Of a stretch of DNA of 26,364 nucleotides, positions 12,101 through 18,007 are shown in pieces. Source of the DNA: Gammaproteobacteria bacterium (GTDB lineage Bacteria > Pseudomonadota > Gammaproteobacteria > Burkholderiales > Burkholderiaceae_C). The stretch's first letter is position 1. Each line of letters starts with the position of its first letter. Made by a program: the position numbers and the translations under genes. Where the stretch lies: positions 1 through 26,364 of the forward strand of contig JASGCH010000001.1 in the NCBI GenBank assembly GCA_030054245.1, given 5' to 3'. The notes under the pieces are model-generated. The model saw nothing but the letters and a program-made list of their open reading frames with translations, was not told the origin of the DNA and made no database searches.

Positions 12101-12182
12101 CTGCATCATCGTTTTTGTCGAACAATCCCGCCGCTACTTCAGATCCGTCCAGCGCCATGGCAAACTGTATCTCCCAAGATGA
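9108..12182 (+). CDS. RND efflux permease, MdtB/MdtC-like
   Basis: About 1024 aa with RPVA start, PTYRKVNPADTP, GFVIDDVIVVIENI, KNAIL and RMRPMLMTT. Start placed at ATG 9108; the track start at 9057 is inside a MITE. Confidence 0.9.
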   Translation: MPLIALLVLRPVASVLILLGLCFAGALAYFQLAVTPLPHIEFPTISVSAYIPGASPETMSNTVATPLERFLGTLEGIRELSSNSSQGSTRVSIQFNPEKDVSLAEKEVQAALQAASSSLSADLPNPPTYRKVNPADTPILILALMSSVVSRGEMYDLATTTLGQKLSQIPGVGQVTFNGGALPAVRIDIYPEVLELYKISLEEVRLAVLANHSNRPKGIIEHSDKSWRITSNSHLTNAQDYASIIVRYQDEKPIYLRDLARVYQSVQDLKNTGLVNATPAISISIYKQANANVIETIDKIKERMPQFQSMLPATVELQAVLDRTTNLRASINEMQKAFLWALFLVIAIVGIFLKRLTATAVVIFIVPATLATTAVTMYFLQFSLNNLSILALIIAIGFVIDDVIVVIENICRKIDRGLAPQEATISSMQEIGFTIIGISLALCAVFLPILLMGDILGQLLHEFSVIIISSVIASMLIAITLTPALCAQWLSKRAHPPSKPRIGSKAWRTISHLSQKILLWHLRHQYIAWLALLSLTAGSYFLFQQLDKIFFPQQDTGRIFVVTRAEQGSSFQNMQRTLEQVVDIVQQDPAVEYVSGNAGSGGTATMAISLKPLKIRQESVQKIISRLRLKLNAIAGLRTFLVAGQDMRMGAIVSNSEFQYTVKADSLEELRRFSPLIRKTLGHLPELTDVDSEYEDNTTLTYLHIDRDALSRYGLSLNSVLAYMQNAFTQRLIAVIYNPLNQYRVVLGVGEKYWQDASILEQINLPNSQGELVPLTKVVRIQPKLQSQTVSHEGGVPSNTFSFNLADQVSLSTALNAIRQAIDDLNLPSSIRSIYSGSANALQRSLATQPQFIALALVVLFIVLGILYGNLWHPFSVLSTLPIAAFSAFLGLLVSNTAFSVITFIAMMLLVGSSMKNAILINDKTLQLQQLGFSIHPAVFLATKQRMRPMLMTTIASSLTALPLIWGYNEGAEIRHPLGYTMLIGLFMSQLMTLYFTPCIIVFVEQSRRYFRSVQRHGKLYLPR

Positions 12183-12213
12183 CCCGTCTAAGCTCAATCT
12201 TTACCATCGCATA

Positions 12214-13605
12214 ATGCCTTACTGGATACTCTTTTTTATGGTAGGTACCTTGGTGGCTTGTCAAGTGCCCAAGTTACCCGCACCAGCCGACCTATCCTCC
12301 CCTTTACAATTACGCGCTTATGCCGACAAAATCGTCAATCCACAGCAGATCGACCATGACCAGCTTCATTGGTGGAGACATTTTGGCGACGCAGAACTCA
12401 ACGATTTACAAACGCTATTATCTAAACACTCGCCTAACCTAGAAATTTTAGCGGCTCAAATTCGTGCCGCCACAGCTTTGGTCGCCAGTACCAAGGCGAA
12501 TCCATACCCTGTAGTCAACCTAAGTACTTTCTCTTCTATCAGTAGCAATGCCAATACAGAGGCTTTGGTACGCAACTTTCAACCTAGTATCCCGATTTCT
12601 TGGCAAGTAGATGTCTGGGGACAAAACGACAAAAAAGTCCAACTCAATCAATCTGAAGTCTCCGCCCTACAAGCTGATTTTACCAGTGCCAAACTAGCCG
12701 CACAAAGCGATTTAGTACAGCTTTATTTTAACTTGAGAGCTTTGGATTATCAAACTTACCTCCAAAAGAAACTATGGCTTGCCTACCAACAAGCTGAAGC
12801 CGCGGTCTTGGCAAAACACCGCCTAGGCACAGCCTCTAGCTTAGATGTGGTGGTTTTACAAAAGCAAACGCAAACCCTAGCAACACACATTTTGGACTTA
12901 CAAACCGCGCGCGCACAAACTGAGCACGCCATGGTGGCATTGGTCGGTAAAACCCCGGCTGAACTGTCGATCCCGGCATGGCATGAGGACAAAGCCATGC
13001 AAAGCATTTCCCCCCTCCCCCCACTACCCCAAGAGATTCAAGCCGATATTTTAACCCGGCGCCCAGACTTACAAGCCGCCCAGTGGCGCGTACAAGAAGC
13101 TCATTTACAGCTAGGCATAGTACGCGACACATTCTTCCCTACCGTCAATTTTTCTTTGGCGCTAGGTTATCGATCGAACCAACTCGCCAACCTCGTCAAC
13201 GCCAGCAATACCTTTTGGTCACTAGGAGCCAACTCCTTAACTACCCTATTTGACTCTCAAGCCCGCCAAGCCAATTGGCAAATAGCTTATGCCAACTGGG
13301 AAAAATCCATAGCATTCTACCGTCTGCTCGTGATCAGTTCCTACCAAGCTTTAGAAGACAACCTAGTCAGCTACCAAAACCTCAGCTTAGAAATACCCTC
13401 AAGCCAACGCGCCTTAGAAGCCAGTGAAAAATACTTAAACCTCATCCAACAACAATACCACTTAGGTTATTTAGATGTCTTTGCCCTAACCACCGCCAAA
13501 ACGCAATACGCCAACGACCAGCTCCGCCATTACACAGTACTCAACCGTTTGCGCCTGACTGCCAGCCAATTGCTAGCACAGGGACTTATGTTACCTATAC
13601 CTTGA
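12214..13605 (+). CDS. Outer-membrane efflux lipoprotein (OMF, NodT/OprM family)
   Basis: Lipobox LVAC, SWQVDVWG and LTRRPDLQAA motifs. Start is uncertain (ATG 12214 chosen; ATG 12157 possible). Confidence 0.82.
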   Translation: MPYWILFFMVGTLVACQVPKLPAPADLSSPLQLRAYADKIVNPQQIDHDQLHWWRHFGDAELNDLQTLLSKHSPNLEILAAQIRAATALVASTKANPYPVVNLSTFSSISSNANTEALVRNFQPSIPISWQVDVWGQNDKKVQLNQSEVSALQADFTSAKLAAQSDLVQLYFNLRALDYQTYLQKKLWLAYQQAEAAVLAKHRLGTASSLDVVVLQKQTQTLATHILDLQTARAQTEHAMVALVGKTPAELSIPAWHEDKAMQSISPLPPLPQEIQADILTRRPDLQAAQWRVQEAHLQLGIVRDTFFPTVNFSLALGYRSNQLANLVNASNTFWSLGANSLTTLFDSQARQANWQIAYANWEKSIAFYRLLVISSYQALEDNLVSYQNLSLEIPSSQRALEASEKYLNLIQQQYHLGYLDVFALTTAKTQYANDQLRHYTVLNRLRLTASQLLAQGLMLPIP

Positions 13606-13628
13606 CTAGACCCAAGCTCCCCATACCT

Positions 13629-13855
13629 AAGACGGTAGTGCCATCAGCTGGTGCCGCTCGACGAGCTGTCAAAGTACAAGGCTGGAGGGAACACGCAACC
13701 AGCTTCATTTCCGAAGAGGATCATGGTGGATGCTCCCAGTCTCGCATATTGAGTATATGCGAGACTGGGAGCGAAAGCACCATGGATAGCACAACGAACT
13801 GGAGTACATACATAATGCAGTCATTTGGTAGTGCAGTAGGTTGCGCAACAGTCTT
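13629..13855 (+). mobile_element. Long-form (227 bp) palindromic MITE
   Basis: Degenerate left end AAGACGGTAGTGCC, right end GCGCAACAGTCTT; hairpin at 13732-13772 with loop TGAGT. Confidence 0.88.
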
Positions 13856-13898
13856 CACAATGTTATTCCAACTCTCTAACCATCTCTTCCTCGTTCAT

Positions 13899-13911
13899 GT
13901 GCAACAGTCTT
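13899..13911 (+). mobile_element. Solo right terminal inverted repeat
   Basis: GTGCAACAGTCTT, 43 bp beyond the previous element. Confidence 0.8.
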
Positions 13912-13931
13912 CTTATAGGTGTGTTTGCGGG

Positions 13932-14004
13932 AACTAACCAGCAAGCTCACCGGCGGCCATGGAGCGCAACGGAATTGCCACCGGTGCAACGCCCCTTGTT
14001 ATGT
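13932..14004 (-). other. Integron attC-like recombination site (73 bp)
   Basis: Minus strand reads ACATAAC...GTTGCACCGG...CCGGTGAGC...GTTAGTT, with R''/R' boxes and inner L boxes carrying an unpaired base. The MTase stop TAA lies inside R''. Confidence 0.75.
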
Positions 14005-14925
14005 GCCGGTCTTGAGTTCAAGGTTAGGCTGATAAATCTCTGGCAGACGCTCTTTGATTATTTCTACATATTTTACTTCTATTTCTATGCCAGTAAAATG
14101 ATAACCAAGCTGCTGAGCGGCTACTCATGTTGTACCACTCCCGGCAAACGGATCTAAAACAATGTTCTCTTTAGATTTTGGAACTAATGTAAGTATTAAC
14201 TTTTTATCAACTCCAGTGGCTTGACAGTACAGTGTGCGAATTTTTTTTTCGGATTTATTATAATAACCTTCGAAAATATTCGATTGAAAAGAGCCGTCTT
14301 CGTTGATTGTCTTAAATACACCAACACCTGTTTCTTGAAGCGTTTCCCAATAGTTGTTAAGAAGTGGTTTCTGAACTAACACAATGGATTCCCACTCGTT
14401 CCTGAAACAGGTATGCCAGCCATCCCATTTTTCCGCATCAGGATGGTTCATTTTTTCAAGTTTGCTATTGAGGTTTAGTCCTTTGGGAATACCAGAATGC
14501 CTACGGTAAACCAGAATATCTCGCGTATAAAACCCTACATCTTCCAGCGCAACTTGGATATGCGCCGCTGTCCTAGTGCTATTGAACACAGCAACGGGAG
14601 CGCCATGCTTACAAACCCTAAACAACTCTCGGCCCCATTGTTTACACCAATTGGTGTATTCAATAGTATTTTCCTGATTTCGTTCGTACCATCTAGCATT
14701 GCGTACTCCCCCCGCCAGTCCACTGCCGTAGGGTATATTTTTAACTAAAGTTTTACTGTCTTTGATTCGCTCTAGCCGCCGATTGATTTCCTTATTATCC
14801 CACTTGCGACCAATAAATTCATAGTTGTATGGCGGATCGGTGATACATGCCGCCATGGAGTCATTTGGCATTTCAGACATTACGGATACACAGTCACCTA
14901 AGATTATTTGATCTAAGTAATTCAT
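13999..14925 (-). pseudogene. Type II beta-class N4/N6 DNA methyltransferase, inactivated
   Basis: ITDPPY and VLDPFAGSGTT motifs. An in-frame TGA at 14125-14127 is followed by VAAQQLGYHFTGIEIE...GT*. The HCTVKP motif sits in a shifted frame between two homopolymer indels. Confidence 0.88.
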
Positions 14926-14927
14926 GA

Positions 14928-15640
14928 TCAACCCCTGGTAATAAAGAAGGTTTTTTGGTCGCTGTGGCAACGAAACCATTGATACAGATCAAAACCCGTC
15001 CTTCCCTTTAAATAATCGAATGTTGCCATTCCCGTGTAAACAGACCATCCACCTGCCTTGCAAGCTGTCATTGCAGACGGAAGATTATCTTCTCAAGACT
15101 GTTGCACAACCTCGACGAACTACCAAAGTGCAAGGCTTAGCGGAACGCAACCAGCGGAATTTACTCAAATGTAAATGAGCTGGTGAGTACCGCATAACGC
15201 AGTAATTTGGTAGTGCAGTCGGTTGTGCAACAGTCTTTTCTCGAAGACATAGAAACACAGGTCGATAACCATTCTCTTTCAGAAGGTATCCATACTGCTT
15301 GAACTTTTTCAAAGTTCCAGAATCACCGGAACCTACTCTATGTGTCAATAGCGTCCGTTCCGAGAACCAAGTAGCACAGTTCGTTACCACCCAATCTTAG
15401 AGCGCCGCTGAAATAAGAGCAAGTATTCTTGCAAAGTTCTACCACCAGAAGTTGCCAACACATTCCTAACTGCCTTCCCCAAAACTGTTTGTTTTCACGC
15501 TCCAACTCTTGCGTGATGCCAAATATCTCCATCAAAACATCTGTGGAGTCATCGTCATCCTCATAAACCTTATCGGAGAAGTTGCCTTGATATTTTTTGA
15601 GGATGTCTGAGAGATTTTTGTCAATGTCACTATGAGTCAT
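14928..15640 (-). pseudogene. Putative type II restriction endonuclease, broken by a frameshift and a MITE insertion
   Basis: AAGGA RBS then MTHSDID...DAIDT; frameshift near 15340 to RVGSGDSGTLKKFKQYG...LCLRE; MITE; then DNLPSAMTAC...FITRG*. The stop lies 2 bp before the MTase ATG. Nuclease function is inferred from context. Confidence 0.7.
15095..15237 (+). mobile_element. Short-form (143 bp) palindromic MITE with 5-bp target duplication
   Basis: Perfect 17-bp terminal repeats AAGACTGTTGCACAACC / GGTTGTGCAACAGTCTT; TTCTC at 15090-15094 and 15238-15242. Confidence 0.93.
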
Positions 15641-15665
15641 AGTTATCCTTTTTGATTTTATGGTC

Positions 15666-15678
15666 AAGACTGTTGCAC
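15666..15678 (+). mobile_element. Solo terminal inverted repeat 25 bp upstream of the nuclease pseudogene
   Basis: AAGACTGTTGCAC. Confidence 0.8.
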
Positions 15679-15779
15679 CTCGCGTGAGAGCGCGAAAGGT
15701 ATGCGTTCCTTTGCCTGAACGAGGGGACAAGCAAGAGCCGTGGGAGCAAGAAAACGACCACTTTTTTGCGTAATCTGGT

Positions 15780-16949
15780 TTAAAAGCTATAGCGATACAC
15801 CCGGGTATTTCTTGCTACAAAGCCCATACCTTGGTATAATTTGTGGGCTATTTCCCGGTCCGGTCTGGAGGTTAAATCTACATCCACTGCCCCCCATTCT
15901 TTAGACAGTTCCAAGGCTTTTGAGACTAATTTCTTGCTTATACCAAAACCACGCATTGTCTGATCAACCACCACATCGTTGATATGCGTGCGCAAAGCCG
16001 TTAGGTTAGCGTGTTGAATCAAGTTCAGCATTCCGACAATTTCCCCTTGATAGCGTGCCACTATTAAAGTTACATTCGAATTGCCTAGAAGCGTCTTTAT
16101 GTAGCCCAAGCTAGGGGGAGGGCGACTCGACAATTGCGGTATCAGGCTTTGGGAAGCCTGCCAAAATTCTTCGGCTTGCTCGGGTTGCACAGCAGATATT
16201 TCAAAGAGATCCGCCCATTTCTGGGTTAATATTTCTAGGTCATCTCTGGTATTAACCCCTCTCCAAGTCACATTTTCTTTAGGCATGCGTAGGCTACGCA
16301 CGGGCCATGCGCGTTCTCGAGCCAAACTGGCTATATCCGTCAAATAGTATTCATTTTGTTGGTTGTGGGGTGTCAGTAGAGGAATGAGTTGTTGCAGACA
16401 GCCCTTCGGTGCACACAAAATACCCGTATTGATGTGGTTGATGGTTTTTTCCTCTGGACTAGCGTCTTTTTCCTCTACGATGGTTTGAATATTGCCCAAG
16501 CGGTCTTCAACCACCCGACCATATCCATAAGACTCGTACACCTCAGCGGTTAAAAACACTAGGCTATTTTCTTGTTGTGATTGCTGTACCAGTTGGCGGC
16601 ACCAAGATAGGTCGATGAGTGGCACATCCCCGTATAACACCAAACAATGGTTTGCCGGATCAAGTTTGGCTAAACTAGCCCGCACCGCGTCTCCAGTGCC
16701 TCGGGGTACGGGTTGCTCAACAAATTGAATAGGCTCAAACTCCTCCAGCGAGGAACGCACTTGTTGTTGCTCAAAACCCACCACCACCAACAAGTTTGCA
16801 GGGTGTAATTTTTGGGCAGTTCGGATGACATGATGAAGTAACGGTATTCCCGAAAGCTCGTATAAGACTTTAGGTAAACTCGGCTCCCCTGCTTTTTGCA
16901 TACGCTTGCCTTGTCCAGCCGCTAAGATCACAATATCTAAGCCATTCAT
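15780..16949 (-). CDS. Fusion of a GlmU-type GlcNAc-1-P uridylyltransferase domain and a C-terminal GNAT acetyltransferase
   Basis: LAAGQGKRM, GTGDAV, YGDVP, YGRV, IVEEKD, EYYLTD and GVN in aa 1-about 245; HINDVVVDQTMRGFGISKKL...LYQGMGF in the C-terminal 140 aa; no hexapeptide repeats. Confidence 0.85.
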   Translation of the reverse strand: MNGLDIVILAAGQGKRMQKAGEPSLPKVLYELSGIPLLHHVIRTAQKLHPANLLVVVGFEQQQVRSSLEEFEPIQFVEQPVPRGTGDAVRASLAKLDPANHCLVLYGDVPLIDLSWCRQLVQQSQQENSLVFLTAEVYESYGYGRVVEDRLGNIQTIVEEKDASPEEKTINHINTGILCAPKGCLQQLIPLLTPHNQQNEYYLTDIASLARERAWPVRSLRMPKENVTWRGVNTRDDLEILTQKWADLFEISAVQPEQAEEFWQASQSLIPQLSSRPPPSLGYIKTLLGNSNVTLIVARYQGEIVGMLNLIQHANLTALRTHINDVVVDQTMRGFGISKKLVSKALELSKEWGAVDVDLTSRPDREIAHKLYQGMGFVARNTRVYRYSF

Positions 16950-17972: not shown

Positions 17973-18007
17973 AAGACGGTTGCACCATCGGCTGGTGCAA
18001 CCGTCTT
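17973..18007. mobile_element. 35-bp mini MITE (perfect 14-bp arms)
   Basis: AAGACGGTTGCACC atcggct GGTGCAACCGTCTT; the same T-to-G change is present in both arms. Confidence 0.85.

Follow-up and report, generated by a model that had tools for sequence, protein, structure and literature searches.

The window analysed here is a stretch of 26,364 nt that makes up the whole of contig C251, from a MAG of 1.58 Mb in 270 contigs that is an estimated ~55% complete and has a G+C content of 44%. The spacer between a TolC-like outer-membrane gene and a glmU-like gene is filled by a restriction-modification (R-M) gene pair that is closed by an attC site, together with several MITE sequences (Table 1).

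Table 1. Features of the spacer and its two flanking genes. Positions are those of the window.
Feature	Position	Strand	Comment
TolC-like outer-membrane gene	12115-13605	+	PF02321
Full-length MITE, ~226 bp, same family	13630-13855		Between the 54-nt fragment and the TolC-like gene
MITE-end fragment, 54 nt	13858-13911	-	Terminus 13899-13911; 89% match to C218:5326-5379
R-M cassette	~15667 to 13938	-	Leader, endonuclease, methyltransferase and 73-nt attC
attC, 73 nt	13932-14004	-	R′′ ACATAAC 14004-13998 (holds the methyltransferase TAA); R′ GTTAGTT 13938-13932
Beta-class DPPY DNA methyltransferase pseudogene, 308 codons	13999-14925	-	ATG 14925; stop TAA 14001-13999; PF01555
Small type II restriction endonuclease pseudogene, predicted PD-(D/E)XK	14928-15640	-	ATG 15640; stop TGA 14930-14928
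MITE inside the endonuclease gene, 143 bp (15095-15237)	15090-15242 with duplication		284 short BLAST hits in the genome
Cassette leader, short, promoterless	15641-15667	-	From comparison of upstream regions across copies
Solo 13-nt MITE terminus motif AAGACTGTTGCAC	15666-15678	+	25 nt before the endonuclease ATG
glmU-like gene	15780-16949	-	Stop at 15780

The two genes are read from the same strand, i.e. the top strand of the attC, with the endonuclease preceding the methyltransferase and 2 nt separating the stop codon of the first from the ATG of the second. The endonuclease follows a leader of ~25 nt and the TAA of the methyltransferase lies inside the R′′ box, which is the layout of promoterless ORFs carried in a cassette. 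A nuclease-like gene and a methyltransferase on the minus strand had been recognized when the sequence was first read without database searches (the sequence-only reading), and the coordinates, the PF01555 match and the predicted nuclease fold all agree with this.

The endonuclease belongs to a family of proteins of 181-191 aa, with up to 90% identity, of which P0121 (189 aa, intact) matches the window gene at 90%. The family has the invariant residues D90...D99-T-K101 (D-x8-D-x-K). An AlphaFold model of the family (pLDDT 86) has as its best PDB matches by Foldseek PspGI, Ecl18kI and Card1, with probabilities of 0.93-0.99, so that a PD-(D/E)XK nuclease fold is predicted. The PADLOC REase_II profile matches weakly (E 4.5e-4). 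No Pfam family was found for the endonuclease, and no named enzyme family could be assigned; the label ‘ApaLI-like’ offered by precomputed annotations was dropped, as the Pfam RE_ApaLI profile scores 15 bits against a cut-off of 25.

The window gene aligns to P0121 in three pieces that lie in different frames. Five nucleotides are deleted between 15342 and 15341, removing the codon for Lys101 and shifting the frame, and conserved residues are altered (D86N, P88L and D90Y). At codon 136 the gene is interrupted by a MITE that is absent from the homologs and is flanked by a perfect 5-bp target duplication TTCTC (15090-15094 and 15238-15242). Excision in silico of the MITE together with one TTCTC repeat restores the frame (LCLRE/DNLP).

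The methyltransferase is 89% identical to the intact 308-aa protein P0001 and has the motif order DPPY...FAGSGTT. Nucleotide alignment shows that one A has been gained in an A9 run at 14241-14249 (a +1 frameshift) and one A lost from an A5 run at 14201-14205 (a -1 frameshift), so that the conserved FAHCTVKPLELI segment is garbled by the two together. In addition the codon for Leu267 is changed from TTA to TGA at 14127-14125. Errors of assembly might explain the two frameshifts in A runs, but not the TGA, the 5-nt deletion or the insertion of the MITE. Elsewhere in the window, at 1127-1381 on the plus strand, another region with DNA methyltransferase motifs (DTPKP...) gives a weak tblastn match to the cassette methyltransferase, to which it is unrelated.

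Both genes have therefore been inactivated. Judged from their sequences they are dead, lacking the intact frames and catalytic motifs of a functional type II R-M system. The sequence-only reading had described a two-gene R-M cassette lying outside a detectable integron; the cassette stands, while the intact system does not, both genes being pseudogenes, a state that was missing from that reading.

The site that follows the methyltransferase is an attC. Its R′′ and R′ boxes each depart at one position from the consensus sequences RYYYAAC and GTTRRRY, and the crossover point would fall between G13938 and T13937, i.e. at G/TT of R′. A hand-written attC regular expression combined with an energy scanner was too strict and missed known sites, and was replaced by a covariance model, R1. 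Its training set comprised the attC sites from five further copies of the cassette, that of the locus L063 (where the methylase is only 65% identical) and that of one unrelated cassette of the locus L033. The set left out the window and consists mostly of descendants of this one cassette. With R1 the window site receives 59.5 bits and an E value of 1.6e-12 over the whole 1.58-Mb assembly. This is the sole R1 match in the assembly, and a second attC in the window could not be found with R1 even with filters off. The earlier identification of a 73-nt attC-like site with the methyltransferase stop inside ACATAAC is borne out by this score.

Applied to same-family genomes and one Thiomargarita MAG, R1 found 13 sites beside eight genuine intI genes (TIGR02249 scores of 455-505 bits, against a cut-off of 265). 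All 13 are in divergent orientation to the integrase, as arrays require. Since these correctly oriented sites lie beside true integrases, R1 generalizes to independent attC sites. An Rfam scan of 13500-15900 returned nothing relevant, the only matches being chance miRNA-like ones on the MITE hairpin.

Across 19 aligned sites the TAAC/GTTA outer box is nearly invariant, and the AA/TT core pairs are kept in all 19. Standard pairs occupy 95.4% of the pair cells, compared with 74% for shuffled and at most 45% for slid sequences, and 13 of the 16 stem pairs have compensatory changes; note that for both counts the alignment of the 19 sites was fitted to the model. When folded as the bottom strand the best-preserved copies adopt the classical attC layout, in which a paired R box and an unpaired spacer of 4-5 nt lead into a stem that ends in a small loop and has two or three bases bulging from its R′′-L′′ arm. 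The family consensus has a bulged T and C on the 3′ arm of the bottom strand. In the window site a 1-nt deletion has removed one extrahelical base of this consensus and there is one A-G mispair; the site folds no better than shuffled sequences (z = +1.25 for the bottom strand and +0.53 for the top strand). Thermodynamics alone therefore neither supports nor refutes its identity as an attC. The departures from the consensus suggest that the site is crippled, and mobility of the relic has probably been lost.

The same cassette is found in other genomes. Copies that are 77-88% identical in nucleotide sequence occur in Trichloromonas, Thiomargarita, Terriglobia and Syntrophomonadaceae, and on a gammaproteobacterial chromosome. 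In five other genomes the homology spans both genes and the attC and ends at G/TT of R′, beyond which the contexts all differ. The sequence downstream of the methyltransferase is thus shared by homologous R-M loci, consistent with the site being part of the unit. One copy, at L033, lies in an array, with further cassettes that have their own attC sites and carry toxin-antitoxin (TA)-like and small ORFs. The unit therefore recurs in different contexts that include an array and has a fixed boundary at G/TT, as is expected of an integron cassette. A near-identical attC also closes the methylase gene of L063, despite the lower identity of the gene. L033 and L063 are unrelated metagenomic arrays that share a hairpin motif GGGGTGACGAAGGAAC(C/T)CCAA...TTGGGGTTC (L033:1218-1345 and L063:57-160). 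This directly follows a CCTAACAAG attC start, as if an element had been inserted into, or had replaced, the middle of an attC. Rfam gave no match on either array.

Other copies are solitary. In a Thiomargarita MAG (L006:4370-6076) the cassette and its attC lie alone, with rapZ on one side and the HPr gene on the other; in the nearest relatives these two genes are neighbours, 5-110 nt apart. In a gammaproteobacterial genome (L007:4290-6296) they lie alone between DUF58 and MoxR genes; this record is titled as a chromosome, and it contains no intI above the cut-off. Around the copies at L004-L007, R1 run without filters detected no further attC within ~5 kb. A candidate second attC upstream of the L006 cassette was rejected, since the similarity of 26 nt falls inside the coding sequence of rapZ. 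No empty site corresponding to the window could be found among 20 relatives and three Thiomargarita MAGs, where the glmU-like flank has only paralog-level matches of ~40% identity.

We note that further copies are degraded. Those at L003, L052 and L009 retain only the R′′ start of the attC. At L003 (5428-5992) the methyltransferase is 91% identical, the endonuclease is frameshifted, the attC is truncated after R′′ and transposase genes flank the locus. The loss of all but the R′′ start in three copies, and the frameshifted endonuclease of one of them, indicate that decay of this cassette is common.

That the window contains no integrase had been stated at the outset. The search was extended to the assembly, where no integron integrase was found either, the best TIGR02249 match being 59 bits against the cut-off of 265. 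This is the level of Xer-like proteins, and was seen in all control genomes too. Since the MAG is only 55% complete, and since intI exceeds the cut-off in 12 of 31 related genomes and is matched in 11 of 18 from the same family, the absence of intI is uninformative; an integron could lie elsewhere in the genome.

The sequence-only reading had invoked CALINs (2016, PMC4889954) for attC sites that lack a nearby integrase. An attC without a nearby integrase is indeed what is found, but the label does not apply. A CALIN is a cluster, of two or more attC sites, where the window has one and the assembly has no other. With its single attC the element is a SALIN, a class described by Loot et al. (bioRxiv 10.1101/2022.09.11.507474), in that one attC and its coding sequence lie without an att site or intI nearby, this being the case within a 26-kb contig of a MAG that is 55% complete.

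The MITE sequences around the unit require separate consideration. The terminus of the 54-nt fragment is the reverse complement of AAGACTGTTGCAC and lies 20 nt past the attC, so that this and the upstream terminus both face away from the cassette, at the distances given in the earlier description. Beyond the upstream motif the next ~100 nt, up to the stop codon of the glmU-like gene, are single-copy DNA. The motif AAGACTGTTGCAC is very common in this genome. It occurs 19 times in the window (0.26 expected) and, according to how many mismatches are allowed, 669-1067 times in the assembly. Its distribution is strongly biased, with 2.0 ends per kb of non-ORF DNA compared with 0.07 per kb of ORFs; 36% of non-ORF gaps contain one or more ends, and of all termini in the assembly 52% have no partner. 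There are 87 pairs of outward-facing ends that are 1.2-2.4 kb apart, this being the commonest orientation class. A 5-bp target duplication is present in only 33 of 257 crude pairs, so that young copies alone can be judged by whether they have one. There are also ‘mini’ forms, palindromes of 35-45 nt that comprise just the two termini (e.g. 17973-18007 of the window), and 74 of the 257 crude pairs are 30-50 nt in length.

The 5′ end of the cassette is less well defined than its 3′ end. Homology to the other copies starts at ~15663, i.e. ~22 nt before the endonuclease ATG. A start of TTATGT would be expected as the complement of R′′, but in the window this is eroded. The TT at 15667-15666 is likely to be the 5′ boundary; it overlaps the MITE-end motif and the boundary is not sharp. 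The presumed TT is preceded by C, compared with the G of the attG consensus GWT. If the 5′ flank GTGCAACAGTC is joined to the 3′ flank TTAGTTCC (15666-15667 with 13932-13937) a complete MITE terminus GTGCAACAGTCTT is generated. The cassette may thus have landed exactly at a MITE terminus, in which case the insertion site would be CTT, as against the GWT of the attG consensus.

We consider it very probable that the locus is a single two-gene integron cassette, now alone and with both genes decayed, that arrived away from any array and for which the MITEs were not the vehicle. The principal competitor is that the cassette is the last survivor of a local array, from which the integrase, attI and all other cassettes have been deleted. 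Integron integrases are common in the family, the sequence TTAGTT that follows the crossover point is a loose fit to TTRRRY, with which a neighbouring cassette would begin, and the 5′ junction departs from the GWT consensus. It is because this junction is not clean that a relic of an array is retained as a minor alternative. But ordinary chromosomal genes are reached within 116 nt on one flank and 326 nt on the other, neither another attC (in the window with filters off, or in the assembly) nor a fragment of intI is present, and in other genomes the same cassette is found solo inside conserved operons. On balance we regard a local array as improbable.

The sequence-only reading had the unit lifted from an array and placed here by the flanking MITEs, acting in effect as a composite transposon. 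The termini are only 25 and 20 nt from the unit and point outwards, and the family has been active enough to leave a fresh copy, with its 5-bp duplication intact, in the endonuclease gene. However, the upstream end is a bare motif of 13 nt that gives way to single-copy DNA, there is neither a complete pair of elements nor a common target duplication around the R-M unit, and the unit does not recur elsewhere in the assembly, as a composite transposon might. Where so many termini are unpaired and outward-facing pairs at this spacing are so frequent, such an arrangement is commonplace. Moreover, in other genomes the boundaries of the unit are those of the attC. Three Thiomargarita MAGs all carry the R-M family of the cassette, one of them (L006) with the attC as well, yet they are essentially devoid of the motif (one match in 8.9 Mb). 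Carriage by MITEs is therefore very unlikely, and this part of the reading was abandoned; the MITEs appear instead to be later arrivals, lineage-specific colonists of the surrounding non-coding DNA and of the dead gene. Least probable of all is that the downstream hairpin is not an attC, but a transcription terminator or a REP-like element travelling with the R-M operon. It is a G+C-rich, imperfect hairpin directly past a stop codon, and its folding energy is not better than that of shuffled sequences. By contrast it has no T-run, and a TAAC...GTTA box, an unpaired spacer and bulged bases on the expected arm are the features of an attC. R1 detects sites beside true intI genes in the orientation of arrays, a near-identical site ends a methylase of 65% identity, and the homology breaks at G/TT.

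Arrival of the lone cassette from an array can be envisaged as follows. An integron integrase would have released the R-M cassette from an array as a circle, and recombination would then have joined the folded attC of this circle to a chromosomal site outside any integron, downstream of the glmU-like gene. Such an attG, or secondary-site, route has been shown experimentally (Loot et al., bioRxiv 10.1101/2022.09.11.507474). Once in place the cassette would probably have been transcribed by read-through from the glmU-like gene. The endonuclease would have been inactivated first, through the 5-nt deletion, the catalytic substitutions and the arrival of a MITE in its gene. Loss of the endonuclease must precede or accompany loss of methylation because the cell would otherwise not survive. 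Decay of the methylase (by two frameshifts and a nonsense codon) and of the attC (by loss of one extrahelical base) would have followed.

The resemblance to known SALINs is close. These share with the window a coding unit with one attC, no att site or integrase nearby, ordinary chromosomal flanks and a 3′ junction at G/TT. The window cassette differs in having two genes, in being pseudogenized and in a 5′ junction that lacks the G of GWT, and here we infer insertion by IntI. Type II restriction systems have been reported to be common in integron cassettes (bioRxiv 10.1101/2024.07.02.601686), and the compact type II R-M pair in one cassette, with another copy in the L033 array, conforms to these; unlike them the window copy lies off-array and is non-functional. 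As an R-M system the pair corresponds to the orthodox type IIP arrangement of a beta-class N6/N4 methyltransferase with a small PD-(D/E)XK endonuclease. The order of the genes, the 2-nt gap, the DPPY...FxGxG motifs (PF01555) of the methyltransferase, and the D-x8-D-x-K motif and predicted PD-(D/E)XK-like fold of the endonuclease are all shared. It departs from that arrangement in that the RE_ApaLI match is below threshold and both window genes are broken.

More tentatively, this family of R-M cassettes might be a habitual escaper from integrons. Its copies are spread over five or more genomes that are phylogenetically distant from each other, and the majority are single off-array insertions in conserved operons; the off-array sites include those between rapZ and HPr, between DUF58 and MoxR, and between the glmU-like and TolC-like genes of the window. 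If post-segregational killing were to fix rare recombination events between an attC and a genomic site, selfish R-M cassettes should be over-represented among SALINs. The order of decay should then be the endonuclease followed by the methylase and attC, as would be the case in the window. We consider this possible but doubtful, including the fixation by killing, the over-representation and the ordered decay.

The wider consequence is small, as an element of this kind has already been described and is ordinary. Two cautions follow from the locus. MITE ends close to a gene are not evidence for transport by MITEs in a genome where there are two such ends per kb of non-coding DNA, and one attC does not make a CALIN. 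As a lone cassette the locus would provide a clean natural example of the spread of cassettes outside arrays, in this case with a defence cargo seen at the end of its life, and this MITE-rich lineage would also have, or have had, integron traffic.
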